Below, one piece after another: positions 1 through 19,805 of a stretch of 64,000 nt of DNA. A model generated the notes under the pieces. That model was not told where the DNA came from, did not search any database, and saw only the letters and a program-made list of their open reading frames with translations. This DNA is from a virus, in the IMG/VR virus record IMGVR_UViG_3300028581_000028, positions 1-64,000 of that record, one strand, 5' to 3'. Made by a program: the position numbers and the translations under genes. Every line of letters starts with the position of its first letter. The first letter of the stretch is position 1.

Positions 1-103
1 ATTTATAACCAGTACCATCGGCATCGTAAAAAATATGCCCTTTATATTTATCGGAGGCTCTTTCTACCGTTACTCCATCTTTAGTTACTGCAGTTTTTTT
101 CAT
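1..103 (-). CDS. Partial ORF running off the window start (MKKTAVTKDG...FYDADG...), putative virion protein
   Basis: Hand-translated; ATG at 103 after an AT-rich leader; carries the FYDADG motif shared by neighbouring proteins. Confidence 0.6.
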   Translation of the reverse strand, partial: MKKTAVTKDGVTVERASDKYKGHIFYDADGTGYK

Positions 104-116
104 TTATTTTAATTTT

Positions 117-437
117 TTATAATCCAAATGCTACTGCTGGTACAACTCCGCAATCAACGAGAGTATATTGTCCCAGCCAATTTTTTTCATAACAGAGTCC
201 GTTTGCGTCTACCCAGTACGCACCATTCCAGTAAAAGCCACCGCCACCAATTACAAATGGTCTTCTTCCTCCACGATGACCACCAAAGTGTCCACCGCCA
301 CCGTGTCCGCCACGACCTCCACCGCCTCTATGTCCGCCTCCGCCTCTTACGTTGGATACAGTATCATCGCCATTAGATAACACTTCATTGGTTGTGTTTG
401 TTATCCGTATTATTGGGTAAGCTGTTATTATTTTCAT
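117..437 (-). CDS. Gly/Arg/His-rich small protein, putative virion core protein
   Basis: RGG/GGH-rich centre after VSNVRG; N-terminus MKIITAYPII nearly identical to that of 7958..8584. Confidence 0.7.
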   Translation of the reverse strand: MKIITAYPIIRITNTTNEVLSNGDDTVSNVRGGGGHRGGGGRGGHGGGGHFGGHRGGRRPFVIGGGGFYWNGAYWVDANGLCYEKNWLGQYTLVDCGVVPAVAFGL

Positions 438-447
438 AATTAATTTA

Positions 448-609
448 TTATTTTGAATGCTTGGTTATATGCGAAAATAGGGCAGTTATACCCAATACGG
501 ATACAATAAGAGCAAGAGTTTGAATACGGTTGTGCCATAACATTTCCGTGCTTTTCTTTTCAAGACTTACGAGTCTTTCTTGTGTACTAATATCGGAATT
601 ATTTTCCAC
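448..609 (-). CDS. 53-aa membrane protein (coiled coil plus one TM helix), not in ORF track
   Basis: Hand translation from GTG: MENNSDISTQERLVSLEKKSTEMLWHNRIQTLALIVSVLGITALFSHITKHSK; fills the gap between neighbouring genes. Confidence 0.55.
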   Translation of the reverse strand: MENNSDISTQERLVSLEKKSTEMLWHNRIQTLALIVSVLGITALFSHITKHSK

Positions 610-1168
610 CTTTTTTCATTTTTTTATAAACTACAAAACCGATGATTCCGAGTACTACTACAACACCGACTGCTATGCCGATTTTTGCTCCAGTACTCAT
701 TCCCTTTTCAGATCCTCCGCTTGGAGTGTCTTTTGCGAGTGCGTTTGCCAAAGCAATATCTCCAGCAACACCTTTCTCACTTGCCTTTGCAGACATCTGC
801 TGGGCTTTTGCCTGATCACGTTTCGAGAGATTTTTCTGCAGTTGACCTTGTGCTTTTAAGCCTCTGGCTTCTGCTTTTGACTTAGCTCTTAAGTCTCTTC
901 TTGCGTTTCGTCTTGCCCTACTTTTTGCATCCAGCCCAAAGAGGTTATAATAATCCTCTTCGTTTCCCTCGCCATCGAGGTGCGAAAACACCCTTTGACC
1001 AATAAAGGCTCTGGTTGTTTTGTCTTTGAAGCCACCCTCTGCACAAAAGAATTCATTTAAGTCTCTGCCATTATAACTCTGTAATCCCTTTGTATATACA
1101 TAGTCAAGACGTGTCCCATCAATGCCTTGAGTAAACTCGTCCTTTAGGTTTGAATTGCTATAATTCAT
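599..1168 (-). CDS. Membrane-anchored virion protein with Arg-rich segment
   Basis: C-terminal KGMSTGAKIGIAVGVVVVLGIIGFVVYKK anchor; acidic N-half followed by RARRNARR. Confidence 0.75.
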   Translation of the reverse strand: MNYSNSNLKDEFTQGIDGTRLDYVYTKGLQSYNGRDLNEFFCAEGGFKDKTTRAFIGQRVFSHLDGEGNEEDYYNLFGLDAKSRARRNARRDLRAKSKAEARGLKAQGQLQKNLSKRDQAKAQQMSAKASEKGVAGDIALANALAKDTPSGGSEKGMSTGAKIGIAVGVVVVLGIIGFVVYKKMKKGGK

Positions 1169-1174
1169 AATCGG

Positions 1175-1792
1175 TTATTTTTTCTTAATTAATGTTTTGT
1201 AAATTATAAATAAAGCAACCATCACCGCTACCGTAATACCGATTGTGATCGCTGGATGTTCTTTGATAGTATCAACTCCTTTTTGTACTCCCTCGTTAAT
1301 AGCTTCCGTTACTTGCGTAAAAGTAGACTTGGCATAATCTGCCTCTTCTTTCCGCCTTCCCCGTAATAGTTCTTGTTGTTTTGGAGGTAATTTTTTGTTA
1401 TCGTTATAAGTACTGGTTACGATTGCGTCTGCCAGTTTATTTACATCCCCAGTTTTTGCAGATTCCCTAATCGCTGGTTTTGTAATACTACCGTAATTAT
1501 ACGCAATAGATAATAGGGCAGTACGAGCTGGTTCTGGAAGCTTGTTATAAGCATCACCTATTTGTCTTTTTACTACTGGCTCGAAATCTTGTTTAATTCT
1601 TCTGGCAATGTCTTTCTCTGCCATTTCTCGTGTTGTAACATCTGTTTTTACAACTTTTCGAAACGTACCATCTGGCAGAGTTATAGTATCGCTACCGTAT
1701 CCGAGTCTGTATGCGTTTACGTCCCAATAAGGCTTACTGCTATAACCCTCGAATTTTTTTATAAAATTTGCTACGTTATCGTAAAATGCCAT
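1175..1792 (-). CDS. Phage-type lysozyme (GH24-like) with C-terminal TM anchor
   Basis: IKKFEG...YWD...LGYG, ALLSIAYNYG and RRKEE motifs; hydrophobic C-terminus plus KKK. Confidence 0.8.
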   Translation of the reverse strand: MAFYDNVANFIKKFEGYSSKPYWDVNAYRLGYGSDTITLPDGTFRKVVKTDVTTREMAEKDIARRIKQDFEPVVKRQIGDAYNKLPEPARTALLSIAYNYGSITKPAIRESAKTGDVNKLADAIVTSTYNDNKKLPPKQQELLRGRRKEEADYAKSTFTQVTEAINEGVQKGVDTIKEHPAITIGITVAVMVALFIIYKTLIKKK

Positions 1793-1801
1793 AATATTTT
1801 T

Positions 1802-2404
1802 TTATTCTATATCATTTATAAACAATGCTATTTTCTCTCCACCTTGTTTTATTAATGAATTTGGAGGACTCCCAGCCCGTAAGCCTTCCTTTGTCCTCGA
1901 TTCAATAGCCACTTGCACAAGTTGATTGGGATCAGTTATTCCTTTTGCAACTGCAGATGAGAAGTCGGAAGCAAATTTTTGAAACCACCCCGATCCGTTC
2001 CACGTTGCATAAATAAAATTAAACAACAACCGCTTGTCGCTGTTTACAATATCTCTCGCATTGGGAGATAAATAACGCTTTGCTAAAGCCTCATATTCTG
2101 GCAACATTATATTGCCAACATAGACCTTTAACTGTTTTGCTAAAGCACCTCCTTTGTAATTCCATTTCCAGAGTGTCTTTGCATTAGCGTCATCGATTGC
2201 CTTCCAAAATAAAACTCCAGATGGGGTTAAGTTGATCCGCCCCCCAGCTTTGCGATCTATTCCGAACATAGTTTCGCCACTATTAGCATAACGCTGGTCT
2301 TTTACACGACCATCTGCTAACATTAAAGGATGATAATAACCGCCCTCAAGTTTATCAATAACTAAAGCGGTTATTCCCTTAAATATGTTTACGTCTACTG
2401 CCAT
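1802..2404 (-). CDS. Glycoside hydrolase family 108-like muramidase
   Basis: EGGY...GETMFGI signature near the N-terminus. Confidence 0.65.
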   Translation of the reverse strand: MAVDVNIFKGITALVIDKLEGGYYHPLMLADGRVKDQRYANSGETMFGIDRKAGGRINLTPSGVLFWKAIDDANAKTLWKWNYKGGALAKQLKVYVGNIMLPEYEALAKRYLSPNARDIVNSDKRLLFNFIYATWNGSGWFQKFASDFSSAVAKGITDPNQLVQVAIESRTKEGLRAGSPPNSLIKQGGEKIALFINDIE

Positions 2405-2484: not shown

Positions 2485-3195
2485 CTACGGAGCAATGTTG
2501 GTGTAATTCTTACTTTGTAAATAAACGTCTTTCAACGCTTTGCCATAAGAATTAGTCTCATTATTCCAAGTATAGTCCGTTACGATTGCCTTTGCCTTAA
2601 TCCAGCCTTGTTTACTGGTATTTCCAACGAATTTAGCAACTGGTTTAGCCCCATCCATAACGATCTTTCCGATAACGAATTTTTTATCTACTGCTGGGTA
2701 GTTAAAAGCGTTATCTGTAGACTGCTTTGGATAAAGGTTATCGCCATTCTTAAAGTTATTGCTTTTCGCTGGGGTTGTTAGCTTAAGGTATTCAGCACCG
2801 TAAACCGCCCAAGCCTTTTGTGTAGACGTTCCGAAGTTACCGTAACCGCTTCCTTTTAAAAGGAAATTGCCATTAGTTAATGCTGGATTTTTAGCACCAA
2901 CCCATTTTAAACCTTTTTTATCAAGCCAGTCTTGGAACTTCATTACTTCGGAAGGACTCGAAGGCATACCATCACCTTGTGTCACTACTGGTAGGGGTGT
3001 ATTTACGATAACCTCTGGTGTAGTATTCACATTTGTCTGGTTTTGGTCTACCTTCGGCAGTTCCGATGTTAATAAGGCATCGGCTTTTTCTTTTTCCTTT
3101 GCCTTTTTACGTTTCCACAAAAGATAACCGCCTATTGCTCCCAGTACCAAAAAACTTGCGATAACGAGTATCGTCTTTTTTGTGTTTGGTTGCAT
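2485..3195 (-). CDS. N-terminally membrane-anchored protein with peptidoglycan-binding-like domain
   Basis: TM at about aa 8-27 followed by a KRKK stretch; VMKFQDWL...GNFGTSTQKAW resembles PG_binding_1. Confidence 0.6.
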   Translation of the reverse strand: MQPNTKKTILVIASFLVLGAIGGYLLWKRKKAKEKEKADALLTSELPKVDQNQTNVNTTPEVIVNTPLPVVTQGDGMPSSPSEVMKFQDWLDKKGLKWVGAKNPALTNGNFLLKGSGYGNFGTSTQKAWAVYGAEYLKLTTPAKSNNFKNGDNLYPKQSTDNAFNYPAVDKKFVIGKIVMDGAKPVAKFVGNTSKQGWIKAKAIVTDYTWNNETNSYGKALKDVYLQSKNYTNIAP

Positions 3196-3200
3196 AGTTC

Positions 3201-3428
3201 TTATTTCTTAGTAACGGTTTCTTTGGTTGGTTGGCTTTTTTTAGCTTTGATACTTGCAGAAATGATTGCACCAGCAACTGCTCCAACAAGAGTACCAACA
3301 ACTAATTTCCAAGTTTTGTCAGCTTTGATAACTTTTTTAGTTACAAGGAATCCAGCAACTGCTCCAATTCCAGTACCAATAAGGTTGTGTTGACCTTTTG
3401 CGATGATTTCTCTTACTTTGTTTGCCAT
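3201..3428 (-). CDS. Small two-TM glycine-zipper membrane protein
   Basis: GTGIGAVAG and GTLVGAVAGA helices with a basic tail. Confidence 0.7.
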   Translation of the reverse strand: MANKVREIIAKGQHNLIGTGIGAVAGFLVTKKVIKADKTWKLVVGTLVGAVAGAIISASIKAKKSQPTKETVTKK

Positions 3429-3472
3429 TTTCGTTTGATTTTAATTAAACACTATTTATTTATTACAGAATT

Positions 3473-3979
3473 TTAAAATTTATAAGGTATTTTCCTTGCG
3501 GTCAATATTTGATTTATTTTTTGCACATACACTGCATCCATATCATCAACAATTGCGGATGACATAGTACCCTTAAAATCTGGAGCTGGATTCCCTTTGC
3601 CAGAAGCTACTGTACGGACACCATAACTTTGCATAACTCCCAAGAGATCAAGATAAGTTGGGATAGACATAAACGCTTGTAAGATTGCTAAGTTATCCGT
3701 TCCCCAGCCATCCATTGCAGTATGAATTTTATTCGCCAACCCCAGCCATTGAGCTTTTGTTAATTTGGGCTTCTCGCCTTTTGACATTAACTGTACCAAC
3801 TCGTTATTAATTTGTTGGTCTTGTTGTCTTTCGCCTTGTTCTTTAACTAAATCGGTACTCTTTTTATAAATTTTATATGCGACTATTAGTACAGCACCAA
3901 CAACTACAACACCAATTAAACCCTTCGCCCAAGTTGGCATCCCAGTAAAACTCTCCTTTGCGAAATTTTGCTTTGCCAT
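3473..3979 (-). CDS. Membrane-anchored protein with annexin-like repeat
   Basis: N-terminal TM; ANKIHTAMDGWGTDNLAILQAF matches the annexin endonexin motif A-M-x-G-x-G-T-D. Confidence 0.6.
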   Translation of the reverse strand: MAKQNFAKESFTGMPTWAKGLIGVVVVGAVLIVAYKIYKKSTDLVKEQGERQQDQQINNELVQLMSKGEKPKLTKAQWLGLANKIHTAMDGWGTDNLAILQAFMSIPTYLDLLGVMQSYGVRTVASGKGNPAPDFKGTMSSAIVDDMDAVYVQKINQILTARKIPYKF

Positions 3980-3991: not shown

Positions 3992-5938
3992 TTATTGCCA
4001 TACGTTTTTATCTGTAGCCTCGTTATTTACCCCAGTAGCACCCTTCCAAATAGTCATATTATCAGAAGTGTTCAAGTAAGCGGTTAATAGGGTTGAACCC
4101 ACATTAGCAACCGAGTGATTGGCGATAATATCACCAGCCAATGCCACTGCTACGGGAGTAAATACAAACTGAAGCGTATTTCCGACTACTGTATTATCTG
4201 GCATAAATATGTGGGGAATTACTCCACCCAATCCTACGATATTGTTTATGTTTTTACCCGTTGAATTAAGGCATTTAAACTCCCCAATAAAAGATGTATC
4301 GGCTGGGAGTGTTAAAACACCCAAAGCATAAATTAAAGGATCGTTTAAATCTAAAGTATATTGCCAGTTGCTATAACTATGCCTTACGCATCTTTTTGTA
4401 TATACTACCGATACGATTTTAATATATACAAAAAAGTCTGATATATCACAATTCTCAACCTCTCCAGTTAGCGTTATACTATCCGACTCAAAGATAGCTT
4501 TGTGTTTTAATCGGTTCATTATAAAATTTCCGTTAACCGATACGTTTATCTGTACCTTAGACTGCCCGATTAAATTATTATAAGTAACATCTCCGCCACC
4601 AGCAATAGAACCTACCGTTAAAATAGAAGACTCTACAATCGTATTGTTTTCTACAAATCTTCCGTTTGAGGTTGTTGTATTTATTAAAAGTGAACTTCCA
4701 TTCCCAGCCACGTAATTGAATCTTACGCTACCCCTTGTATCGTTTAATCGTATTGCACCACCAGAATTTATTAAATTAAACGATACAATTCCAGCTCCTA
4801 TCGCCCCACCGCTATATGTATCGTCTTCAAGTAGTCCATCGTGTATAATATTAGAATCAAAATTCACGACACTATTTCTGCAATTCATAATACAACTACC
4901 AACCAGCTTATTTTTTGTAACAACATCTCTACCCCATTGAAAAAATAAAAGGGAGTTGAGTAATCCACGAATAAATAAGTCGACCTCATTCAACCGTTTA
5001 TCTGCCCGATAAATTATTGTATTGGTAAATACGTTGTATTTAACGAAATCTGTTTCGAGAATATATCCAGTAGTATCGCTTTTTGCCAATACAGACCAGT
5101 TTACTAAGTCGGTATGTGGGGCTGTTCCCCAAGCACCAGTTAAATTAACGTAATGGAGGTTATTCCAGATAACCACATTTCCGATTACTACAGGCTGAAC
5201 ATTAGCCGACCATAAGCCCAGTTGACCAGCAAAGCCAACAACTCCCGTATAAACTCCTACTCCTTGAAAATCGGGGTTCAAAAACAATCCAGCACCTTGT
5301 ATAGATACGGAGTTGTTTGTTACACCTTGAATAACGACACCCAAGTCTGCAAATGAGTTATCGGTTATTTTATAAAATTGTCCTTTAACTACAGTAAAGC
5401 CAGATATCAATGCCAACATTTGTGCATTTGTTAGCGTTACAATAGAAGCACCATCAATAGTTATTACGGTTGCATTATTTATCGCATCATCCGAAGCAAC
5501 AACTCCAGCACCAACAAAATTTAATCTTAACCGTTGCGGTAATGCCAAGCCCTCGTCTTGTATAACGTGTCCAGCTACACCGCCACCGCCACCAGCAGTT
5601 ACACTATACTGCCCAATATAATTAGTATCGCTTGTAACACGCACCACAAAACTTGATGCGTTTGCGGTCATTACATAACTCGATACCCCGTTAATTAAAA
5701 AGCCAAGAGGGGCATCAATAGTGATGTTGTTTATAGAAGCATTATTGCTTTTGTCTACAATATATAATTTCCATTGGGTACTCCATTTTCCTTGAGGTAT
5801 TCCAAGCAATTGAATACCAACCGCACCAGCAGAAGTATCACATAAAAGAACACTATCGTCTTGGCGAACAAGGTTAACCAGCCCGATAATCGTTCTTATG
5901 TTATTCCCGTATTTTTGTTCAAATAAGTTGGTAGCCAT
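3992..5938 (-). CDS. Spike / receptor-binding-like protein with probable beta-helix
   Basis: 648 aa, rich in N/V/G/I; periodic Asn-ladder repeats in the C-half; fibre-type LNFVGAGV motif. Confidence 0.55.
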   Translation of the reverse strand: MATNLFEQKYGNNIRTIIGLVNLVRQDDSVLLCDTSAGAVGIQLLGIPQGKWSTQWKLYIVDKSNNASINNITIDAPLGFLINGVSSYVMTANASSFVVRVTSDTNYIGQYSVTAGGGGGVAGHVIQDEGLALPQRLRLNFVGAGVVASDDAINNATVITIDGASIVTLTNAQMLALISGFTVVKGQFYKITDNSFADLGVVIQGVTNNSVSIQGAGLFLNPDFQGVGVYTGVVGFAGQLGLWSANVQPVVIGNVVIWNNLHYVNLTGAWGTAPHTDLVNWSVLAKSDTTGYILETDFVKYNVFTNTIIYRADKRLNEVDLFIRGLLNSLLFFQWGRDVVTKNKLVGSCIMNCRNSVVNFDSNIIHDGLLEDDTYSGGAIGAGIVSFNLINSGGAIRLNDTRGSVRFNYVAGNGSSLLINTTTSNGRFVENNTIVESSILTVGSIAGGGDVTYNNLIGQSKVQINVSVNGNFIMNRLKHKAIFESDSITLTGEVENCDISDFFVYIKIVSVVYTKRCVRHSYSNWQYTLDLNDPLIYALGVLTLPADTSFIGEFKCLNSTGKNINNIVGLGGVIPHIFMPDNTVVGNTLQFVFTPVAVALAGDIIANHSVANVGSTLLTAYLNTSDNMTIWKGATGVNNEATDKNVWQ

Positions 5939-5940: not shown

Positions 5941-7146
5941 TTATAATAATTTTTTGCTTGTCCTTGCTTCGTTAAAAAACAACTTTCTTAAATCTCTCTG
6001 CTCGTAGAAAAACGCAAATGTCACCGTATTCCCAGCGAGTACCTTATATTCGAGTACATCCATCCCATTAGGAATAAATGGTCGGTTTAGGTTACAGTCG
6101 ATATTAAAAAATACAATATCGTTTGCAACCTGCATATTATCCACTTGTAATTGCAACTGGATTGGATCGATTTTTTGTTTACCCTCAGAGTTTTTATTTT
6201 TAAAAATCAAGGGTTGGTTTATTTGTTGTTGAAGCGTTGCTCCAGCAAAAGTAAACTTAGCATTCGGGATGTGCATTGGGTTACCGAGTATGTTAAACAT
6301 AACATCAGAATAACTCACCAACCCCCCAGCTACTTGTATTTTGTTGTTTAAATTTCCAGATGTAGAGTATAAATAATCAAGAGGCATAGATGGGTTAAAT
6401 AACTCAACTACAAAGTCTAATGCCGAGTTGTTATTCATTGTAAAGATTAACTCTTTTAGCTTTTTACCTTTGTAGTACCCAACATTTTTTACGTTCAAAG
6501 AACATTTATCGCCCTTTAATATCATATCGTCCAGTCCTTGAACGATCACGGTTTGATCTCTTGGTACAAGAACCCTCTGAAGAGTTTTTGAGTTTTTGCC
6601 CTTGCCAACTAATTTTGCACGTCCCCCAACCAATCGTCCACTATCATCCACCATCCCAACTCCAACCTTTTTTGTCAAAGGCTTTCTTGTTTTTGGGCGA
6701 ACTTGCATTGGTCTGCTTAAGGCTGGGTTTTTTTTGCGAAGTATCGGCTGGTTACCAACGGGTACTCCTCTGCGGACTGTTTTTATGGCTACATTGCCAG
6801 TTTTCCTTCGAACCTTGCCCTTCTTTGCAGTCCGATTAACACGTCTTAGCGAAGTTTTAAAGTCGCCTTTAAACTGGCTAAAATCGATATCTAAAATATA
6901 ATCATCAGGGTTTTCGTCCTCGCTACCATCGTAAACCTCTTCGTTATCATCATCGGCTACTTGTTGGTCGCCCCCTGCATCGTAATATTCTTCATCGCCC
7001 TCTGCCTCAAAATACCTTTCTCCGCCTTGTTCTATGACAAAAGCATCATCCCCACTCTCTACTTCGCTTTGAGAGGCGATGCCATCATTAAGAAAATCAT
7101 CAAAAATGTCTTCTTGGTAAGGGTTATATGTATTTGTATCTGCCAT
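5941..7146 (-). CDS. Capsid-like protein 2 (acidic and basic N-terminal extension plus beta-rich domain paralogous to 13304..14056)
   Basis: C-terminal ~160 aa align by eye with 13304..14056. Confidence 0.55.
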   Translation of the reverse strand: MADTNTYNPYQEDIFDDFLNDGIASQSEVESGDDAFVIEQGGERYFEAEGDEEYYDAGGDQQVADDDNEEVYDGSEDENPDDYILDIDFSQFKGDFKTSLRRVNRTAKKGKVRRKTGNVAIKTVRRGVPVGNQPILRKKNPALSRPMQVRPKTRKPLTKKVGVGMVDDSGRLVGGRAKLVGKGKNSKTLQRVLVPRDQTVIVQGLDDMILKGDKCSLNVKNVGYYKGKKLKELIFTMNNNSALDFVVELFNPSMPLDYLYSTSGNLNNKIQVAGGLVSYSDVMFNILGNPMHIPNAKFTFAGATLQQQINQPLIFKNKNSEGKQKIDPIQLQLQVDNMQVANDIVFFNIDCNLNRPFIPNGMDVLEYKVLAGNTVTFAFFYEQRDLRKLFFNEARTSKKLL

Positions 7147-7149: not shown

Positions 7150-7935
7150 TTACATTAATTGAGCATATTCTTGATTTTCAAACCGTTTAATGTAGTCATT
7201 AATTTTTCGCATCCTTGCTATATTTTCGTCTGTTTGTGCCTTTAAAAACACATTTGCAAAAACACATATAGCATCTATTTTTGAAAAACCGCTTCCTAAA
7301 TATAGATATAAAGCATTAATGTCTGCACCCGTCTCGTGTCCTATTTGTAAGCCGATCTTCGGGTTTTTCCATTTGTGACAATACTCGTGAAGTACGATGA
7401 TAAACCTCATCGGGATTGTGTAGGGTACAAAACGATAAGCACTCGCTTCGATAAGACCAGTAGAATGCCCAATTCTTGCTGGGGTGCTTAACGGAGCTTT
7501 AGACATAAAGTCTCTTATGACGGGGAAGTATTTTATATTAAATCTCGCATCGGGACTCTGGTAAATAGTGCCATTTTGTTTTGGCTTTTCAAATCCACAT
7601 TTTTGCGAAAAGCTAATATCTAACTGCATAAACTCTTTTGTACCCTCGTCCAGCCAGATATTAAATTTCCTTAATGGTACTTCTTCGACTTTCATTTCGA
7701 AGCTTTCATCTCTCGTATCAACCGCATTAAAACAACCGATAAGTATTCTTTTTGGAGTGACTGGGAGTGAAAAATAAATCATCCTCGATCCATCAACAAC
7801 TATCTCCCTATCCGCATATTTACTATTATTACGAGCAACCTCTTGTACCCAGACACGAAACTTTTTCTTGCCACTACAGTTAATAGTGACATTCAACCTC
7901 ATCTCTCTGTTATTGCTTTCGTGTATTGCAAACAT
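7150..7935 (-). CDS. Zincin-like metalloprotease, candidate virion maturation protease
   Basis: IVLHEYCH (HExxH) followed by ETGAD (ExxAD third-ligand motif). Confidence 0.7.
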   Translation of the reverse strand: MFAIHESNNREMRLNVTINCSGKKKFRVWVQEVARNNSKYADREIVVDGSRMIYFSLPVTPKRILIGCFNAVDTRDESFEMKVEEVPLRKFNIWLDEGTKEFMQLDISFSQKCGFEKPKQNGTIYQSPDARFNIKYFPVIRDFMSKAPLSTPARIGHSTGLIEASAYRFVPYTIPMRFIIVLHEYCHKWKNPKIGLQIGHETGADINALYLYLGSGFSKIDAICVFANVFLKAQTDENIARMRKINDYIKRFENQEYAQLM

Positions 7936-7957: not shown

Positions 7958-8584
7958 TTATTTTGCTACTGCTGGGGCTGGTGTGCTTGGCTTTTTAGTT
8001 GCAAAGTAGATAATTGCACCTACTACTACAACGATCCCAACTCCTATTGCGATTTTAACTCCAGTACTCATTCCTTTTTTAGCAGTTGGATCTTCTGCTG
8101 GGGCATTTGTTGATACAAGGTCTGCCTCAGATGATTGTCCTCCACCACCGCCTCCGCCCATATTTAAGCCGAGTAATTCGCCCAGTTTATCAATTAAACC
8201 AGATTCCTTTGCTTTACCCCATACACCTTTGGCTTTATCCCAGTAATATCCTTTAGCTTTTTTCTCCTTAATTTCTTTTTCAGAAGGGGTGCTGGAACTT
8301 GTTCCGCTTTCAAATGCTGGTTTACCAGTTATATTGCCACCAGAGGAGGCTACTCCGCCAAGAGCAGTCCAAAATTTCTCAAAGTCTGCTCCGTAAGTTT
8401 TATAAGCCTTTTTAGATTTTGCTCCGTATTTACCATCGACCTTAAGGTTTGCACCTTTAGAGTTTGCAAAAATATGAAATTGTTTTACTTGTGCAGAATT
8501 CTCGCCATCAATATTTAAGTAGAAATCTTGGTAGTTCTCTCTTTTCTTATTGATAATAACTGGATATGCGGTTGTTATTTTCAT
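7958..8584 (-). CDS. Membrane-anchored protein with peptidoglycan-binding-like domain
   Basis: LKVDGKYGAKSKKA motif; KKGMSTGVKIAIG TM anchor. Confidence 0.7.
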   Translation of the reverse strand: MKITTAYPVIINKKRENYQDFYLNIDGENSAQVKQFHIFANSKGANLKVDGKYGAKSKKAYKTYGADFEKFWTALGGVASSGGNITGKPAFESGTSSSTPSEKEIKEKKAKGYYWDKAKGVWGKAKESGLIDKLGELLGLNMGGGGGGGQSSEADLVSTNAPAEDPTAKKGMSTGVKIAIGVGIVVVVGAIIYFATKKPSTPAPAVAK

Positions 8585-10087: not shown

Positions 10088-10813
10088 CTACTTTTTCTTT
10101 TTAATAGCATAAACAACACCAACAATAAGTGCTATTGCGACCAGACTCCCTACAACTATTAACACGGTTTTGGTTGTTTTGGCTTTACGTTCATTGGCTT
10201 TAGCAATCTCTTCTTGTTTGGCTTTTTTCTGTTCCATTATTTGCTGGATCATCTGCCTCTTTGCCTCTTGTTGTTTTGCCAGAGTTTCGCTACTCCCAAA
10301 CTTTTTCATTTTTTGGGTGTCCATTATTTTGTTGGCGATACCACCACCAACTTCTAATAAACTGCCAATCAGTCCTCCACCAGCATAATAAAACTCGTCA
10401 TCTGATTCGCCATCGGCATCTAAGTAGTCCTCGTTCACAGTATCACTCGTATCATCGTATTGATTTGCATCAAAATATTCGTACATTACCTTATAGGTAG
10501 CCTTCATCCCCGAATCGTTAATTGCGGATTCTCCATCAGCTCCAACGACTTGATTTTTATGGCTGATAAGAAAAGATGCCCCCAGCAATAAGTTACGATT
10601 GCTGGGTGCATTATCTATAAAGGCATTAACAAGCTGGATATCGGATGCGTTATCGGGTACTGGGATATTTGCATTTCTCAATACTTCGATAAAGTCCGAT
10701 TTATCTTTAATAAGATAAATCGCCAATTCACGCATAATAACCCTATTGGCTTTCTGCGTATCTCGGCTTTTTATATATTTGGCGAGTTCGCCAAAAAACT
10801 TGCTATTATCCAC
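10088..10813 (-). CDS. Membrane-anchored coiled-coil virion protein
   Basis: C-terminal TM plus KKKK; GADG and YLDADG motifs. Confidence 0.75.
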   Translation of the reverse strand: MDNSKFFGELAKYIKSRDTQKANRVIMRELAIYLIKDKSDFIEVLRNANIPVPDNASDIQLVNAFIDNAPSNRNLLLGASFLISHKNQVVGADGESAINDSGMKATYKVMYEYFDANQYDDTSDTVNEDYLDADGESDDEFYYAGGGLIGSLLEVGGGIANKIMDTQKMKKFGSSETLAKQQEAKRQMIQQIMEQKKAKQEEIAKANERKAKTTKTVLIVVGSLVAIALIVGVVYAIKKKK

Positions 10814-10817
10814 CTTA

Positions 10818-12068
10818 TTATTTTTTCTTTAGTACATACTTATTAATCAACACAATTGCTACTACACCAATTGCTACACCAATGGCTATTTTAACACCAG
10901 TCGACATACCCTTCTTTTTGCCTTCGGCATTCGAGAAGTTTAAGTCAAATTTGCGACTTGCTGGTGCATCGTAATCGTCTTTATCATCGATCCCTATATA
11001 TCCAGTATCTCCGTTTACACCATTAGATTCCTCTGCTGGTATAACGATTGAGTCTTGTGCAATATCTGGGTTTAATTCTGCATCAACTGGAGTTTCTGAT
11101 CCGCCTTCGGAACGCTTTTGTGCCAATTTTCTTGCTGGTGCGTTTGCTAAAGCTACCTTCATACGATCACGTTTAGCCAAGCGTTTAGCTTTTCTAATTT
11201 CACGTCTGCTGTTTCTTTCTGCTTTGCCACGACCTCTTGCACTTGAATAACCCTGCAGTTTTTCTTCCAACATCTTAACACGGGCATTGCGAGTTGCAAT
11301 CTGCTTTCTAAGGCTTTCTTTCATTGGTTCGCTTTTAGCGTTTGCCAATTTAAGAGTAAGGCGTTGGATATATTCTTTTTGCCATTCGATCTTTTTAGTT
11401 ATTTCTTTTACCGTAGGATGTATTTTTTGTTTCACGCCATCCACGTTCAAGAAATAATCTTCAGCACCGCCAAGTTCAGATGTGAAGGAGTCTTCAGCAC
11501 CATTAAATTCGTTGGTCGGATCAAATACTGCCCCGCCATCAAATCCAGATTCCTCTTCGTATCCGCCTTCATCAGCGTAACCTTCTTCTCCGCCTTTTTC
11601 TTCATAGCCTTCTTCTTCAGCGTAGCCTTCTTCTCCGCCTTGATCCTCAACATATCCGCCACCCTGATCTTCAGCATAACCACCGCCCTGATCTTCAGCA
11701 TAACCGCCCTGATCTTCAGCATAACCGCCCTGTTCTTCCATTAACGGTTCTTCTTCTTCCCCCATAGCTTTACGAGCTAATTTGCGAGTTTTTCTTGTAT
11801 CTTTTTGGGTTTGTTTTGCTTCGAGACGATTTGCTCTCATCCCTTGTCGTGTGGCTTGTTTATCGGCTCTACGAGAAAGCCGATTCGATGCCCTTGTCCT
11901 TTTTCTTTCATCACGTCTTTGGATTCGTTCCATTCTGCGTTTTTGCCTTCTGGCACGTCCACGTCCCCTCGCTTGTGAGAACTCACCAAATGCTTCCTCG
12001 AAAGTAGCAACTTGGATCGAGTTATCGCCAGTATTACGGGGAGATAGTGTAATAATTGTTGGCTTCAT
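10818..12068 (-). CDS. Membrane-anchored protein with alternating Arg-rich and acidic blocks
   Basis: RGRGRARRQKRR block, acidic EDQGGY repeats, KKGMSTGVKIAIG anchor. Confidence 0.8.
   Translation of the reverse strand: MKPTIITLSPRNTGDNSIQVATFEEAFGEFSQARGRGRARRQKRRMERIQRRDERKRTRASNRLSRRADKQATRQGMRANRLEAKQTQKDTRKTRKLARKAMGEEEEPLMEEQGGYAEDQGGYAEDQGGGYAEDQGGGYVEDQGGEEGYAEEEGYEEKGGEEGYADEGGYEEESGFDGGAVFDPTNEFNGAEDSFTSELGGAEDYFLNVDGVKQKIHPTVKEITKKIEWQKEYIQRLTLKLANAKSEPMKESLRKQIATRNARVKMLEEKLQGYSSARGRGKAERNSRREIRKAKRLAKRDRMKVALANAPARKLAQKRSEGGSETPVDAELNPDIAQDSIVIPAEESNGVNGDTGYIGIDDKDDYDAPASRKFDLNFSNAEGKKKGMSTGVKIAIGVAIGVVAIVLINKYVLKKK
11635..11740 (-). repeat. Coding tandem repeat of 21-24 nt (E-D-Q-G-G-(G)-Y-A, about 5 copies)
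   Basis: ccgccctgatcttcagcataa units repeated. Confidence 0.85.
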
Positions 12069-12089
12069 ATTTTAATATTTAAGGTTAAA

Positions 12090-12563
12090 TTATTTGCTTG
12101 GAGCTATTTTAACACTTTGGTGTTTGTCTACATAAGTGCCAAACAAAAATCCTGCAACTGCAACAACTGATGTCACCATTGCGGTCTTGCCACCTTTGTA
12201 TTTTTTGTATTTAGAAAATCCGAAACCGATACCAGCTCCGATTAATCCATAAATTACAGCATTTTTAGTAAATATTCTCTTGTGCATTGGGATATTTACT
12301 ACCGTTGCAGACTGCTGGGCATCTGCTCCTAAAGTTACTTCAGTTACTTCCATTGGTTTGATTTTTTTAAAATATATTAATTGTTTATCCTTCGTTGCAA
12401 ATAGTTTGTAAGTAAATTTTAGACCTCTTCTTTTGCCCTCTACCAGTTTTATATCGCCATCTAATTGAGTACCCTTCTTAATGATTTTATCACTCTCGGT
12501 AAAATTATGATGTTCTAAATTTGGTATAAGAACTTCAGCGTCCTCGATCAATTCTACTTTCAT
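12090..12563 (-). CDS. Membrane protein with two C-terminal TM helices
   Basis: Same architecture as 9487..9978; LGADA motif. Confidence 0.7.
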   Translation of the reverse strand: MKVELIEDAEVLIPNLEHHNFTESDKIIKKGTQLDGDIKLVEGKRRGLKFTYKLFATKDKQLIYFKKIKPMEVTEVTLGADAQQSATVVNIPMHKRIFTKNAVIYGLIGAGIGFGFSKYKKYKGGKTAMVTSVVAVAGFLFGTYVDKHQSVKIAPSK

Positions 12564-12569
12564 ATCTTG

Positions 12570-13220
12570 TTATCTGTTTGTTTTTAAATACAACACCATC
12601 CCAAATATTGCGACTACGCTAACAATTCCAAGTACTACAACTGTTTCCGTTGCAATTCTTTGTACTGGGATACTTTGTTCGCTACCTCCCTCTGCATTAG
12701 AGTATGTAGCATTTTTTGAACATCCGCCACAATTTGAACATCCGCCACTACAGTTTGACATTGTTTGTTTTCTGTAAGGGCAATTTGGACGTTTTTGGTA
12801 ATTTGGGTTACCATCCATATTTATATATCTTTTACAATAAGGGCAATTGGGATTTCCGCAAGGGGGATGTCCTTCGAATTCTGCCCAGCCTTCGTGTAAA
12901 ACAGTTTCCTTTAAAACCTTGTTTTGCTCATCCGTTTTTATTGGTTCTGGATTAGACTGTAGCGGTTCAACCTTAACTTTAGGATTGTTGTATTTTAATA
13001 TAAATTCCTTATGCGGATGAATCTCCGCAAATTCTTTTTCCAAGTCGATCTTGGCTGGGGACGAAGCATAAAGTTTGGCTAACTTAATCTCCAAATCCTT
13101 AACATCCGTTGCGTTAAGCCCCGTATGTTTTTTTAATAAACCCTTTGCTTTATCGGTTGAGGCATTTGCCAGTACCGAGAGAAGCGTTGAATATTCAGAC
13201 TTTTTCCTTTTATCATTCAT
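12570..13220 (-). CDS. Membrane-anchored Cys-rich protein
   Basis: CGNPNCPYC, NCPY and CSGGCSNCGGC; YSNAEG; C-terminal TM. Confidence 0.7.
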   Translation of the reverse strand: MNDKRKKSEYSTLLSVLANASTDKAKGLLKKHTGLNATDVKDLEIKLAKLYASSPAKIDLEKEFAEIHPHKEFILKYNNPKVKVEPLQSNPEPIKTDEQNKVLKETVLHEGWAEFEGHPPCGNPNCPYCKRYINMDGNPNYQKRPNCPYRKQTMSNCSGGCSNCGGCSKNATYSNAEGGSEQSIPVQRIATETVVVLGIVSVVAIFGMVLYLKTNR

Positions 13221-13303: not shown

Positions 13304-14056
13304 TTAGCTCCTCGAGATGCCTTTTACATCCTGAGTTGTCTGGATAATAACTGGAGCTACGTTTTTACCGCTTAAGCGTGGGGCTCTTGCGGAGTTAATC
13401 GATGATCCTCCGTTCAGTTTAGCTTTTCCGCTAATAACTGAGATTGGGAACATAGAGATTGTAAGTAATGCACCAGCTAAGAGGTTAAAGGTTAAATAAG
13501 TGTTTCCATCAACTGTAACAGGCTTGGTAACATCGATGATGTCTGGCTGTTGTTGATAAGCGTCACGCATAATACTTAAATTCAACGGGGTTGAATAAGT
13601 TTTACCGTTTGCATCAACGTGGTTGATATTAACAGTTACTTGTAACTGGGCAGGGGTTGTACATTGAAATCTCCATTTGCCAATTTTGAAGAATTTGTTA
13701 TTTGACTGGGCGAGTAAACGACCATAAGTACCGCCTTGTAAGTTGGTCAATACGATACCAACGGGGTTTCCGTACTGGGGTCCAGCTCCAAACCAATCGT
13801 TGTAGCCAAATAATACTGCGATTAAAGCACCTACGGTTGTGTTTTCGTAAGAAACAACATAAGGATCGGATACGACTTGAGGTCTTCCACTTGCAAATGA
13901 CATATCGTCACCATCGATTAAAGACATATCGTCTCCATCAAAGTTGTCCATATCATCAAAATAAGCGAAATCACCCTCGTTATCGTATGAATCGATACCA
14001 GACATTCTTTCTGTACCGTTAATTGCTAATAGCAATTCTTTTTCTTTTGCTTTCAT
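13304..14056 (-). CDS. Putative major capsid protein (single jelly-roll-like), with acidic N-terminal extension
   Basis: Beta-strand-like ~150-aa core; near the front of the structural operon, with a structured leader and its own terminator; paralog at 5941..7146. Confidence 0.5.
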   Translation of the reverse strand: MKAKEKELLLAINGTERMSGIDSYDNEGDFAYFDDMDNFDGDDMSLIDGDDMSFASGRPQVVSDPYVVSYENTTVGALIAVLFGYNDWFGAGPQYGNPVGIVLTNLQGGTYGRLLAQSNNKFFKIGKWRFQCTTPAQLQVTVNINHVDANGKTYSTPLNLSIMRDAYQQQPDIIDVTKPVTVDGNTYLTFNLLAGALLTISMFPISVISGKAKLNGGSSINSARAPRLSGKNVAPVIIQTTQDVKGISRS

Positions 14057-14208: not shown

Positions 14209-14331
14209 CTACTTTTTTACTTCGGCTTTTTTAACAAGCATCGGAGCAACAAATTTCTGATGAACTGCTAATGCTACCATTACGATAACCAGCGTAGTTG
14301 CCATCTTTTTTAAATTGTCTGTTGAGAACAT
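14209..14331 (-). CDS. 40-aa single-TM micro-protein, first gene of the structural operon, not in ORF track
   Basis: Hand translation MFSTDNLKKMATTLVIVMVALAVHQKFVAPMLVKKAEVKK. Confidence 0.7.
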   Translation of the reverse strand: MFSTDNLKKMATTLVIVMVALAVHQKFVAPMLVKKAEVKK

Positions 14332-14539: not shown

Positions 14540-15316
14540 CTACCTAATATCCAAAGGGAGATAATAGGTTCTTGCCTTACGCATTTCGTCTAAGCTCTTT
14601 TGTATAGCAATGCGTCCAGACTCTTTACTGGCATCGGCTGTTTTATCATCATCTTGTACAATAATACAAGTATCTGAAGCAATATAATAATTATAATAAC
14701 TCATTGCAGTACATCGTAAGGCAAACTGGTCAATCACATTACCAGTTAATTCTGGGCTTTCATCAAATGCACCGACTAAATACAATAACTCTCTTTTAAA
14801 AAACACCAGCCCCTTAATTAAATTATCGGCTGGAGCAACAACGGTTATCAAATTCTCCCCATCCGTTGACAGTAATGACGAGATCTCGTCATTTTTAAAT
14901 TCCGATACGATCCCAGACACCCCACTGCTTGTAATATTAGCACAATTATAAATGAGTTCTATTAGCCAGTTGGGTTGTAACACGACTCCCGTTGGAATAA
15001 TGCAAATATACTCGCTTGTCGCCATCCTAAATACACTATTTAACACACCAGCAAGTTCGGTGTTTTTCTTTGTTACGTTATTGGCTAAACTATTAAAATA
15101 CTCGTTTATCCTTTCGTCCTCCGTGTTATCTATTATAAAGAGTTCTACGATAATACCTCCAACCGTTTTTAAATATTCTACTGGGGCATCGGGAATTATA
15201 AACTCGTCCTTTCGTATCTTAAGCTCAAAGCCAATACTATCAAAGCAATGTTTTACAAGCCAGTAATTGCCTTTGGCTAAAAATATAATAGAAACGACTG
15301 GTTTTAAAAGACTCAT
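14540..15316 (-). CDS. Glycosyltransferase family 2-like protein (degenerate DxD)
   Basis: VSII..., IIDN, LN...ATSEYI, FKRELL..VGAFDE pattern of the GT-A fold. Confidence 0.6.
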   Translation of the reverse strand: MSLLKPVVSIIFLAKGNYWLVKHCFDSIGFELKIRKDEFIIPDAPVEYLKTVGGIIVELFIIDNTEDERINEYFNSLANNVTKKNTELAGVLNSVFRMATSEYICIIPTGVVLQPNWLIELIYNCANITSSGVSGIVSEFKNDEISSLLSTDGENLITVVAPADNLIKGLVFFKRELLYLVGAFDESPELTGNVIDQFALRCTAMSYYNYYIASDTCIIVQDDDKTADASKESGRIAIQKSLDEMRKARTYYLPLDIR

Positions 15317-17226: not shown

Positions 17227-17502
17227 TTAATTCAATGTTCCATCATTGGGTAATATATCAGTAGCCTTCACTATTTCGAGGCTACCGCCTTGTTGGGCTT
17301 CTTTTATAAATGCTTCTGCTTTATCTTTATGCCAAAGACAAGCCCCCACCGATCCTTGCTTGATCCTATAAACAACCTCTTTATCTGGGTTGCTGGGATT
17401 ATCTCCCTCAAAATGTACAAAGGCTTCTTTATCGTTTATAAGCCTAATAAAATATGCCTCTCCAATAAGATTTAATCCTTTTATAATATGCCCTTTACTC
17501 AT
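17227..17502 (-). CDS. Hypothetical protein
   Basis: ORF in operon. Confidence 0.6.
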   Translation of the reverse strand: MSKGHIIKGLNLIGEAYFIRLINDKEAFVHFEGDNPSNPDKEVVYRIKQGSVGACLWHKDKAEAFIKEAQQGGSLEIVKATDILPNDGTLN

Positions 17503-17503
17503 T

Positions 17504-17740
17504 TTACAGATTATTTATAATATTTTTGATACTAAACGGAATTGATATCGGTAAACTAATCCACAATGCAATTATACCGCAAATAAACAAAAAAATATTT
17601 TTATCGGATACTACCCTTGTTGTATCTTCCAGTACTTGCTTCCGATCCGCCCTAAAAAATATAAGAATACTGGCAACTACAAAAGCTACACTCCAAATCT
17701 CGGTACCCAGCAATAATAATATCCAAAAATTCCATTCCAT
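17504..17740 (-). CDS. Two-TM membrane protein next to the packaging ATPase
   Basis: Two hydrophobic helices. Confidence 0.65.
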   Translation of the reverse strand: MEWNFWILLLLGTEIWSVAFVVASILIFFRADRKQVLEDTTRVVSDKNIFLFICGIIALWISLPISIPFSIKNIINNL

Positions 17741-17743
17741 CGG

Positions 17744-18607
17744 CTAAACTTTATTTCCGTAATATTGTTGTGCATATTGTTTTGTCAGACCTTGCATAGC
17801 ATCCTCAATCGGACAACCGTGCATATCTTTGTACTCACGCAAATACTTTTTATTGGTATTTAGATACTGTTTACACGCATCATCAAATTCCTTTCGGGTA
17901 AATTTGCCCTCGATTTTATTTGCAAAATTGTGTATGTAAACAAAAAACCGCTTGTCGCCACCGAAGTATCTGTTATTAACGATTAACTGGGCTATTTTAA
18001 ATAATGTAGGGTTACTTACTTTGCCCTTAATATCGTTTACGTTATCTGCTTGGTAATGCATCCTTACCCAGCGACTATTTTGCCAAATTCTCGGTTCTAC
18101 TGGTCTTAAAGACTGGTACGAAATCAAAACATCAACTGCACGATGCCTTAAGTTTACAATACCACCAACGATCTCTTCCATGAAGGTAACTGATAGGATG
18201 TAGGTGTTTATATCCTCCAGTACAAGCATACCGTTTTTGTAAATCTTTAACAAGTACTCTACCGCCTCTTTCTTTTCTTTAATACCCAAGTTTTTAGCAT
18301 CAATCCTTCGGCATTCTATAATATCCGAGTGACACCATTTTTCCACATCTGACAAAGCGATCCTTCGTACCTCGAAATTCTCGATATCGTTTTTCGCAAA
18401 TTGTTCTTTTGTGTACTCCCCATTGGTGTCGAAAATTAAACATTTTCTACCCTTTACTTTATTATAAAACTTATCCTTAACGTACTCTCGGATAACGTAC
18501 ATATTAAGATAGGTTTTTCCGACTCCTTGTATCCCCGTACAAGTCATCATACCAGCCTCTCTTGTGCCGACTGGCTTTATTTTATTCATTACTTCTTTCG
18601 ACTGCAT
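17744..18607 (-). CDS. A32/P9-like genome packaging ATPase (FtsK-HerA superfamily)
   Basis: Walker A GIQGVGKT, LIFD, Walker B MLVLED, and LRHRAVDVLISYQ (Arg finger RH plus strand-ending Q) in a 287-aa standalone protein. Confidence 0.75.
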   Translation of the reverse strand: MQSKEVMNKIKPVGTREAGMMTCTGIQGVGKTYLNMYVIREYVKDKFYNKVKGRKCLIFDTNGEYTKEQFAKNDIENFEVRRIALSDVEKWCHSDIIECRRIDAKNLGIKEKKEAVEYLLKIYKNGMLVLEDINTYILSVTFMEEIVGGIVNLRHRAVDVLISYQSLRPVEPRIWQNSRWVRMHYQADNVNDIKGKVSNPTLFKIAQLIVNNRYFGGDKRFFVYIHNFANKIEGKFTRKEFDDACKQYLNTNKKYLREYKDMHGCPIEDAMQGLTKQYAQQYYGNKV

Positions 18608-18611
18608 AATT

Positions 18612-19805
18612 TTAAGATGTTGTCGCTAAAGATGTTGTATCCGCATTATTGTTTTCGCCTCCCCCAGCTTCGCCCTCTCCCCCAGCTTCATCGGTTTTAG
18701 TTGCTGGATTCTCGTGATCGGTCTGTTCCTCTTCGTGATATTCTTGGGATTGCGTATTCCGTTGCTCCATTTTCATCTCTTTGAGCTGGGTAATTACGTT
18801 TTGAATTTGTTGTCCCATTGCGTAAGCCTTAACTCCCAGCCCGATTACGATTGTAGTCACTGCGTTGATTATAAGCTCTTGCATTGGCGTTGGTGCAATG
18901 CCCTTTTCAAGCATTACTTCATATAAGCTATCAGCCAAGTCATCCTCATCCATTTGGCTTATCTTAAACGATTCGTCTGCCAGTCTAACTTGACTTTTAA
19001 ACCATTGTTTAACTGTAGCGGTTTGGTTGTCCTCAAGAGTTAAAAGGATTTTTAAATCGATTGTATCCTGTAGTTCGTATTCGATTAATTTATCATCCGT
19101 GATATCTTTGGTAACCCACCAAATACAGCCCATCTCGGATAATTTACAGACCGCCCTTACAATAGTCTTGGCAAACTTTTTGGTGCTTTTGCGTTTTTTC
19201 TTTTCGTCCATACTATCGAATTCTGGATTAACTGGATCGGGCTTAGAGTCCTTCTCTTTTTTATCCTTGTTATTCCCCGATCCCGATCCGCCTCCGCCCT
19301 TCTTTCCGCCATCGCTTTTGCCCTCGTCCTTTGGCATTTCGAAGCTCTCCCCAAATGTTGTTGGCTCGTTAAAATTGGTTTGACCAGTATTGCTTGACTT
19401 TTCGCCCTCCCGTTGCATTCCAGTATCCATCACGTAATCTCGTACTATTGGAGCTTCACGGTTTAAAGGATCAATATCAGACGAATAAGTATCATCGTGT
19501 TCGGTTTCTTCACCACCGCCACCGTTGTCTGTATTGTGTTCTTTCTCGCTGGATGATTCGCTGGTTTTCTCTTCCGTGTTTTGTTCTGTTTTAGTACCCT
19601 CTGCCTTTGATCCAACTTCCTCGAAATGTGTTTCATCAATAGTATATTCATCATACAATTTTTGCAACTCTCCAAAATTGGTCGCTGGATGAAATTTATC
19701 GAGATTTATACCCTTTTTTTCAAGTGCATCTTGTATCGCCTTAATGTACTTTCTCTCCTTGTAGTTAAGGTTTCCTTTTTTAACATAAATCCTTGAGTTC
19801 GACAT
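18612..19805 (-). CDS. Acidic protein with a hydrophobic helix, directly upstream of the ATPase
   Basis: Low-complexity linkers; LIINAVTTIVIGLGV helix; N-terminal domain repeated in 23448..24548. Confidence 0.7.
   Translation of the reverse strand: MSNSRIYVKKGNLNYKERKYIKAIQDALEKKGINLDKFHPATNFGELQKLYDEYTIDETHFEEVGSKAEGTKTEQNTEEKTSESSSEKEHNTDNGGGGEETEHDDTYSSDIDPLNREAPIVRDYVMDTGMQREGEKSSNTGQTNFNEPTTFGESFEMPKDEGKSDGGKKGGGGSGSGNNKDKKEKDSKPDPVNPEFDSMDEKKKRKSTKKFAKTIVRAVCKLSEMGCIWWVTKDITDDKLIEYELQDTIDLKILLTLEDNQTATVKQWFKSQVRLADESFKISQMDEDDLADSLYEVMLEKGIAPTPMQELIINAVTTIVIGLGVKAYAMGQQIQNVITQLKEMKMEQRNTQSQEYHEEEQTDHENPATKTDEAGGEGEAGGGENNNADTTSLATTS

Follow-up and report, generated by a model that had tools for sequence, protein, structure and literature searches.

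The first 20.3 kb of a 64,000-nucleotide (nt) stretch of viral DNA, bases 1–64000 of the linear, 84,313-base IMG/VR record IMGVR_UViG_3300028581_000028 (hereafter 'the window'), hold a block of genes that we read, with a probability of roughly 0.6, as the virion-morphogenesis module of a new and widespread freshwater lineage of double-stranded DNA (dsDNA) viruses; tailless, with an internal membrane and probably infecting Bacteroidota. The window has a GC content of 33–41% and contains no tRNAs, and its minus strand carries every gene, including the three whose products are central to this reading (lengths in amino acids, aa):

17744..18607, minus strand: 287-aa stand-alone FtsK/HerA-superfamily P-loop ATPase, putative genome-packaging ATPase (motifs and Pfam)
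13304..14056, minus strand: small jelly-roll protein, 250 aa, best major-capsid candidate (predicted structure)
5941..7146, minus strand: large jelly-roll protein, 401 aa (predicted structure)

Conservation of the gene block

Homologs of the ATPase are encoded by nine IMG/VR contigs and four contigs from metagenome-assembled genomes (MAGs), at 59–81% identity. Seven related contigs (51–88 kb) were compared over their whole length, making eight genomes with the record of the window itself. From this comparison we see that a block running from 19820 down to 3473 recurs, mostly complete and in the same order, in all seven relatives, a few genes lacking a detectable homolog in one or two contigs; syntenic contigs of the kind that a first-pass annotation of the window had named as a check on its reading do therefore exist. 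Working along the block from its 19820 end, the conserved order is a helix-turn-helix gene, the ATPase, the small jelly-roll gene, five membrane-protein genes, an HExxH protein, the large jelly-roll gene and the spike. Beyond the block, DnaB apart, the relatives share no more than a handful of genes that are small or partial; with synteny inside and so little shared outside, the virion genes of the lineage should lie in the block. Its most conserved members across the relatives are the small jelly-roll protein (57–72% identity) and the ATPase (59–76%), as one would expect of genes for capsid and packaging proteins.

Homologs are plentiful—675 for the small jelly-roll protein (in a 90%-clustered database), 524 for the large one and 577 for the ATPase, with those of the small protein falling into 403 clusters at 50% identity—and where the source states a function it is 'hypothetical protein'. 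Searches with tblastn gave no match in 50,697 phage records or in 72,556 plasmids, and a literature search whose coverage left out most subscription journals found no description of the lineage.

The stand-alone ATPase

Family searches, here and below, covered most open reading frames (ORFs) of at least 350 aa in the record with Pfam and, with Pfam and/or PHROG, the block proteins, the right-arm ORFs of two relatives (G003 and G001) and the large ORFs of a third (G004). The 287-aa protein has a Walker A motif (GIQGVGKT, residues 25–32), a Walker B motif (MLVLED, residues 127–132) and, beyond these, R154-H155…S163-x-Q165. All three are invariant in 22 of 22 family members, so that the RH…Q signature by which the first-pass annotation had picked out a stand-alone P-loop ATPase at this position holds throughout the family. 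Walker A and B motifs, with a conserved arginine some 20 residues further on and a strand ending in [ST]-Q, identify the FtsK/HerA superfamily, and it is to this superfamily that we assign the protein from its sequence.

Pfam matches are in keeping with this: DUF87/HerA is found at E 8.9e-5 (23.1 bits, for a cut-off of 23.2), along with AAA_22, and across the 22 members DUF87 is matched by 19 (best E 3.9e-5), TrwB_AAD_bind and AAA_22 by all 22, and Pox_A32 by none. Identity across hundreds of metagenomic homologs is 59–85%, and the protein is without a membrane segment. A control Pfam scan of five established packaging ATPases returned similar sub-threshold matches for those of PM2, Bam35, P23-77 and SH1, to the AAA_22, DUF87, FtsK, HerA_C, TrwB or TraG families, and none for PRD1 P9; the P23-77 ATPase matched TrwB and the TraG P-loop domain, and that of PM2 matched FtsK, HerA and TraG weakly. 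When aligned with MAFFT, the family is collinear with all five references (PRD1 P9, PM2 P9, Bam35 ORF14, P23-77 ORF13 and SH1 ORF17) over Walker A and the strand after it, over Walker B, and over the Arg…[ST]Q motif and the strand that follows.

Two paralogous jelly-roll proteins

The first-pass annotation had described the products of 13304..14056 and 5941..7146 as beta-rich paralogs and candidates for capsid proteins; each is now predicted, from models of the monomers, to contain one single jelly roll. In the small protein an N-terminal helix and an acidic, disordered linker lead into an eight-stranded jelly roll (residues ~61–222) and a basic tail; the model, built on a 133-sequence alignment, shows an eight-stranded beta sandwich with a mean predicted local distance difference test (pLDDT) score of 87, rising to about 98 over residues 61–220. 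The large protein has an acidic N-terminus, a strongly basic stretch (~95–190) and a C-terminal jelly roll (~220–395), and may serve as a second capsid protein or, alternatively, at the vertices as a penton.

Their relationship can be seen at the level of sequence: BLASTP aligns the two over 78 aa (E 3e-4), hhalign aligns their family profiles over 142 columns (probability 96.4%, E 1.3e-9), and a search with the small protein's profile retrieves the large paralog from two of the relatives (E 3.8e-10 and 2e-5). On these comparisons we consider them true paralogs. Set against the prokaryotic Bamfordvirae (PRD1, PM2, FLiP), both modelled candidates have one roll only; a double jelly-roll capsid is absent among the proteins modelled or scanned, and the Pfam scans of the block gave no capsid family. 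Fold matches of both models are mostly to viral capsid and penton jelly rolls; capsid structures of the Helvetiavirae are absent among the best 50 matches of either VIA fold search.

Membrane proteins, spike, lysozyme and other block proteins

Membrane segments were screened for by crude hydropathy (19-residue window, mean of at least 1.6), a screen with at least one false positive, a beta strand of a jelly-roll protein. It flagged 13 ORFs in 1–14.3 kb, close to the count of about 14 transmembrane proteins with Lys-rich tails in the first-pass annotation, and in most of them a lone C-terminal anchor does precede a tail rich in Lys and Arg. Flagged ORFs are concentrated in the block: in the record they make up 14 of 25 (56%) between 3473 and 20281 vs 26 of 125 (21%) elsewhere (Fisher p 6e-4), and in the eight genomes pooled 91 of 192 vs 175 of 759 (p 8e-11, odds ratio 3.0). 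The remaining genes of the block, and those just beyond it, are as follows:

19820..20281, minus strand: 153-aa DNA-binding protein with a DnaA C-terminal helix-turn-helix (Pfam Bac_DnaA_C, E 2.7e-9)
18612..19805, minus strand: conserved 397-aa protein; long low-complexity middle rich in acidic residues, Gly and Lys, and one membrane segment predicted near residue 311
17504..17740, minus strand: 78-aa protein, two membrane segments predicted; immediately downstream of the ATPase gene
14540..15316, minus strand: 258-aa protein, 26–37% identity in relatives
14209..14331, minus strand: single-pass membrane protein of 40 aa, its gene just upstream of that for the small jelly-roll protein, 54–83% identity in five relatives
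9487..13220, minus strand: five consecutive conserved membrane proteins (by hydropathy; homologs in the same order in relatives), namely the five that follow
12570–13220, minus strand: membrane protein, Cys-rich (hydropathy)
12090–12563, minus strand: membrane protein (hydropathy)
10818–12068, minus strand: 416-aa membrane protein, Arg/Lys-rich coiled segments flanking tandem acidic GGYAEDQ-type repeats
10088–10813, minus strand: membrane protein (hydropathy)
9487–9978, minus strand: membrane protein with 2–3 segments (hydropathy)
7958..8584, minus strand: 208-aa C-terminally anchored protein (translation and hydropathy)
7150..7935, minus strand: conserved 261-aa protein, putative zinc metallopeptidase (invariant motif; 48–61% identity)
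3992..5938, minus strand: spike-like protein, 648 aa; begins 3 nt past the large jelly-roll gene
2485..3979, minus strand: three small membrane proteins, 3473–3979 (N-terminal anchor, conserved), 3201–3428 and 2485–3195
599..2404, minus strand: variable distal genes, 1802–2404, 1175–1792 and 599–1168 (an anchored protein)

The helix-turn-helix gene is the first conserved gene of the block, and five of the seven relatives have a homolog in the corresponding place. Next to it, the 397-aa protein has homologs in all relatives (29–46% identity), always directly upstream of the ATPase; it matches nothing in Pfam or PHROG and may be a scaffold or membrane-assembly factor. On the other side of the ATPase, the 78-aa two-pass protein sits at a position that corresponds, by analogy only, to that of the small membrane packaging proteins P20/P22 of PRD1. 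The five proteins of 9487..13220 gave no meaningful family match in Pfam or PHROG, the few sub-threshold Pfam matches looking like chance. The 258-aa protein is weakly glycosyltransferase-like, its homolog in G004 matching Glycos_transf_2 at E 0.0036, under the cut-off.

In the homolog alignment for 7150..7935, a motif HE[YF][CS]H…NP…E-x-GAD is invariant in eight of eight genomes. Pfam and PHROG gave no match for this protein; the ESM Atlas gave leads only, to a DUF4344 metallopeptidase (0.89) and to M48 (0.80). From its motif it is likely to be a zinc metallopeptidase within the structural module; we know of no maturation protease in bacterial tailless membrane viruses.

The 648-aa protein behaves as its first description as 'spike-like' would lead one to expect: its first ~110–370 residues are conserved in relatives and its C-terminus is variable, as in receptor-binding spikes. 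It has no family match (Pfam, PHROG) and no match in the PDB; in one relative (G002) the gene is present as two full tandem copies and a third partial match. Of two murein hydrolases proposed for the distal genes, one stands, 1175–1792 being a lysozyme (Pfam Phage_lysozyme, E 2e-10) with a C-terminal membrane anchor; for the other, 1802–2404, searches of Pfam, PHROG and the PDB gave no support.

Three side observations concern this region. The anchor KKGMSTGVKIAIGV, followed by a Lys-rich tail, is nearly the same in the otherwise unrelated proteins of 7958–8584 and 10818–12068, with a variant in 599–1168; this recurrent C-terminal anchor may serve to sort proteins into the virion membrane. At high depth, short Logan contigs connect positions 11273 and 97, suggesting a common short repeat. 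Lastly, 117–437 (minus strand) is a 106-aa ORF that contains a run rich in Gly, His and Arg (GGGGHRGGGGRGGHGGGGH) and lacks homologs in the relatives.

Counter-evidence and alternative readings

A number of observations weigh against a tailless, membrane-containing virus, and we give them here alongside the alternatives. We deduce an internal membrane, an icosahedral shell and a tailless particle from genes and predicted folds, the enrichment of membrane proteins being a proxy for the first and the structures predicted being those of the two jelly-roll proteins only. A profile of the five reference packaging ATPases did not detect the window ATPase (E about 3), hhalign against the same five matched Walker A alone, and sequence searches of the PDB, with the single ATPase and with its profile, came back empty; assignment to the A32/P9 clade, made on size (enzymes of this type have about 210–290 aa), motif layout and gene context, is putative rather than proven. 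The jelly-roll profiles, for their part, show no similarity to VP16, VP17, VP7, VP4, P31, P3, P5, PM2 P1/P2 or Bam35 ORF18. Neither the ATPase profile nor either jelly-roll profile matches the proteins of Salisaeta icosahedral phage 1 (SSIP-1, JN880423; hmmsearch E >0.1, hhalign probability <1%), an unclassified virus with a circular genome of 43.8 kb, smaller than those of the window lineage. SSIP-1 is, to our knowledge, the largest cultured tailless membrane-containing phage, and its host is related to Bacteroidota.

This want of a sequence link to known capsid families would also suit a virus of another type—enveloped, pleomorphic or new—in which the jelly rolls are surface or nucleoprotein components and the ATPase acts in assembly or extrusion. 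The fold matches are generic; two single-roll paralogs are what the monomer models show, and neither a role in the shell nor a vertical orientation of the rolls can be read from models of this kind. The long basic arm of the large paralog resembles those of nucleic-acid-binding coat proteins, the load of membrane proteins is very high, and the ATPase family is labelled weakly Zot-like in Atlas clusters. Inovirus Zot-type ATPases, however, carry a membrane anchor; an anchorless 287-aa ATPase beside jelly-roll and small membrane genes is the arrangement of PRD1, PM2, P23-77 and SH1, and the packing of a 58–110 kb genome fits a preformed shell and a pump. We therefore think a virion of another type unlikely.

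A tailed phage (Caudoviricetes) would require that its hallmark genes lie on an unassembled part of the genome or are too divergent to be detected, that the jelly rolls are decoration, cement or receptor-binding proteins, and that the ATPase has some other role. The Pfam and PHROG scans, which are searches with sequence profiles only, found no terminase, portal, HK97 capsid, tube or baseplate family among the scanned proteins, as the first-pass annotation had reported by eye; the one qualification is that the 287-aa ATPase itself is weakly labelled 'terminase large subunit' by PHROG (E 2.8e-5, covering profile positions 307–501 of 555, about one third). As a rule, no phage gene is easier to detect than that for the terminase large subunit. 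In favour of a tailed phage, automatic labels of related Atlas clusters are Uroviricota, jelly rolls occur in tailed-phage proteins that are among the fold matches of our models (KHP40 cement, Kp7 and Pa223 tails), and several large right-arm ORFs have no annotation. One right-arm protein of G003 has short matches to PHROG tail-protein families (E 3.8e-18 and 7.8e-16), which we read as a common fibre domain.

The record is also incomplete, which bears directly on the same question. CheckV puts its completeness at 61%; proteins identical to those of the window are found on a 111,596-base contig (and homologs on one of 235,546 bases), and Logan contigs continue beyond position 1. In four lake samples such contigs span 98–20000 in a single piece or in many small pieces, and in two lake runs (X2 and X4) an 852-base contig overlaps window positions 1–127 and runs 725 bases further left. 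Its depth is ~3x that of the main contig, from which we take the left end of the window to be an assembly break at a repeated or shared segment. A lysozyme-based metagenome scan found only relatives at 48–55%, on short contigs, and did not extend the window.

The relatives help here. In G001 (73.3 kb) and G004 (57.8 kb) both ends are non-coding, low-complexity, purine/pyrimidine-rich DNA. The contigs of G001, G004, G005 and G006 (contig 30) end 140–300 nt upstream of homologous first genes, and those of G003 and G007 (contig 64) start 65–109 nt upstream of another common gene. Since independent assemblies stop at homologous places, with non-coding ends in G001 and G004, these relatives look nearly complete. 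The genomes would be either linear, with defined ends, or circular, with a tract prone to breakage; whichever holds, we are likely to be looking at 58–73 kb genomes without tailed-phage genes. The genome size of the lineage is accordingly 58 to >84 kb, above the 10–44 kb of the cultured tailless membrane viruses compared, and the idea of an unusually large and distinct lineage, already voiced in the first-pass annotation, is strengthened by relatives that look nearly complete and by the lack of any matching phage or plasmid record.

With regard to a tailed phage, then, G001 and G004, for all their non-coding ends, show no terminase, portal or capsid match among their large ORFs; the large right-arm ORFs are not conserved and are missing altogether from G004; besides replication genes, the genes conserved across the lineage lie only in the block; and the remaining core proteins are membrane-anchored, disordered or short, none resembling an HK97 capsid or portal. 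We regard a tailed phage as improbable.

Regarding the ends themselves, the tracts of G001 and G004 hold short repeats and a palindrome, and the genes at both ends point inward. No terminal repeat, direct or inverted, was seen in any contig examined, save for a perfect 111-nt inverted copy in G003 (1–111 vs 64052–64162, the second site lying 622 nt from the right end), which may belong to a terminal structure or have arisen as a fold-back artefact of assembly.

The accessory genes bring up a third alternative, a plasmid-like or conjugative element that is not viral at all, with the ATPase as its DNA translocase and the membrane proteins and lysozyme as its transfer apparatus. Families returned by the scans include a Sbno-like helicase, the LPD23, DUF5661 and DUF6496 polyvalent domains, AAA_5, DUF7192, DnaB, an RNase_T exonuclease, PAPS reductase, DUF932, a ParB-like helix-turn-helix, several N6/N4 and Dam-type methyltransferases and an M15 peptidase. 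DUF932, ParB-like proteins, the polyvalent domains (LPD23, DUF5661, DUF6496), Sbno-like helicases and methyltransferases are common on conjugative elements, cell-wall hydrolases occur in type IV secretion systems too, and the TrwB coupling-protein domain is matched by 22 of 22 members of the ATPase family, weakly and below threshold (best E 6.2e-4). Matches just as weak are shown, however, by the proven viral packaging ATPases of P23-77 and PM2. Among the scanned proteins, Pfam and PHROG found no VirB4, VirB11, full-length coupling protein, relaxase or Bacteroidota Tra protein; the plasmid search was negative, as noted above; the 51–88 kb contigs have no bacterial flanks; and a conjugative element would leave two strongly conserved and very abundant jelly-roll proteins unexplained. 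We consider it very improbable.

As to the arrangement of the accessory genes, several very large proteins are encoded in succession just upstream of the block, at window positions 27462–42477 (minus strand), among them a 1534-aa Strawberry-notch-like helicase, a 1195-aa LPD23 polyvalent protein and a 622-aa bead-like DUF5661/DUF6496 protein, together with an AAA_5 ATPase and a DUF7192 protein. Versions of 1498 aa and 1732 aa are found in relatives, and these proteins may be delivered along with the DNA. Further on, record positions 74607–83485 hold a cassette-like array of at least five paralogous N6/N4 DNA methyltransferase genes (41–50% identical to one another) and a Dam-like gene.

Comparison with known tailless membrane viruses

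Returning to the reading of a tailless virus with an internal membrane, the first-pass annotation had likened the block to the PRD1/PM2/sphaerolipovirus plan with jelly-roll capsids. The jelly rolls are borne out by prediction; being single rather than double, they make P23-77 (Matshushitaviridae) and SH1 (Sphaerolipoviridae), both of the Halopanivirales within the Helvetiavirae, the nearest comparison. Like the window lineage, these viruses have two unequal capsid-type proteins with one jelly roll each, a small stand-alone FtsK/HerA-type ATPase encoded upstream of the capsid-type genes, many small structural membrane proteins, a virion-associated lysozyme or transglycosylase, and no tail genes (for the window lineage, none among the scanned proteins). 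The Helvetiavirae have two major capsid proteins, each a vertical single jelly roll; in the window lineage, single rolls are predicted from monomer models. P23-77 also shares a PAPS-reductase gene (its ORF 3) with the window record. The protein with this domain in the record is encoded at 65608–66498, and in G004 the domain is fused into a 799-aa protein (14343–16742).

The differences are considerable. There is no sequence or profile similarity to VP16/VP17 or VP7/VP4, and the ATPase is similar in motifs only; the jelly-roll genes are adjacent in P23-77 and SH1 but 6 kb apart in the window lineage; the genomes are 17 and 31 kb, as against 58 to >84 kb; and the window lineage, whose hosts are mesophilic freshwater bacteria, adds DnaB, polyvalent giant proteins and many methyltransferases.

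PRD1, Bam35 and PM2 (Tectiviridae/Corticoviridae, Tectiliviricetes) resemble the window lineage in having a P9-type packaging ATPase followed by small membrane proteins, and membrane-associated lytic enzymes; in PRD1, moreover, the gene for the single jelly-roll penton P31 adjoins the spike gene (P31–P5), just as the 401-aa gene adjoins that of the spike here. They differ from it in their double jelly-roll capsid, of which there is no counterpart among the proteins modelled or scanned, in that neither a protein-primed polymerase nor a terminal protein was seen in the window lineage, and in genome size (10–15 kb, as against at least 58 kb); there is no sequence similarity. Overall, the particle plan appears closest to that of P23-77/SH1-type viruses, with no similarity in sequence and in a genome several times larger.

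Host and habitat

Related contigs were binned with Saprospira, Saprospiraceae and Bacteroidota MAGs, and the names of homolog sources include Chitinophagales and Flavobacterium; one bin among the relatives, an 'archaeon' MAG, is probably a mis-binning. The peptidoglycan hydrolases indicate a bacterial host. Shine-Dalgarno-like motifs precede only 20 of 871 genes in the eight genomes, which fits a host that rarely uses them, and the Bacteroidota -7 promoter motif TAnnTTTG is not strand-specifically enriched upstream of genes (94 vs 110 on the opposite strand). The host is probably a member of the Bacteroidota, as had been proposed from the window, with the MAG bins suggestive of this rather than proof. 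The exact window sequence was found again in lake-water metagenomes of many studies; the sequencing runs listed as holding it include no RNA run.

Discussion

Tailless membrane-containing phages are thought to be small (about 10–45 kb) and are badly under-sampled. If the block is a morphogenesis module of the kind proposed, assembly might run as follows. The many tail-anchored and N-anchored proteins would enter the host membrane and create a virus-specific patch, over which the two paralogous single jelly-roll proteins would assemble, the 250-aa protein as main shell subunit and its 401-aa paralog either as second shell subunit, as in P23-77/SH1, or as the vertex base for the spike encoded next to it. 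The conserved HExxH protein may process structural proteins. The 287-aa ATPase, with small membrane proteins such as the adjoining two-pass protein, would then pump the genome into the preformed particle via one vertex. At entry the spike would bind the host, and the membrane-anchored lysozyme, sitting in the virion membrane, would open the peptidoglycan.

A broader proposal, which we hold at even odds, is that the window belongs to a new lineage of family-to-class level with a single jelly-roll capsid family unrelated in sequence to those described; with probably linear genomes of 58 to >110 kb, two to three times the size of any known cultured counterpart; with an accessory set typical of large phages (polyvalent giant proteins, a Sbno-like helicase, methyltransferase arrays); and one that abounds in lakes and is wrongly labelled, as a matter of routine, as tailed phage. 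Automatic pipelines do assign contigs of this kind to tailed phages. Were the proposal true, the known size limit of jelly-roll-capsid bacterial viruses would be raised, giving a bacterial counterpart to the size expansion of eukaryotic jelly-roll viruses, and the small jelly-roll protein, with its 403 clusters, would represent a new and very abundant capsid family and a possible marker for re-reading viromes.

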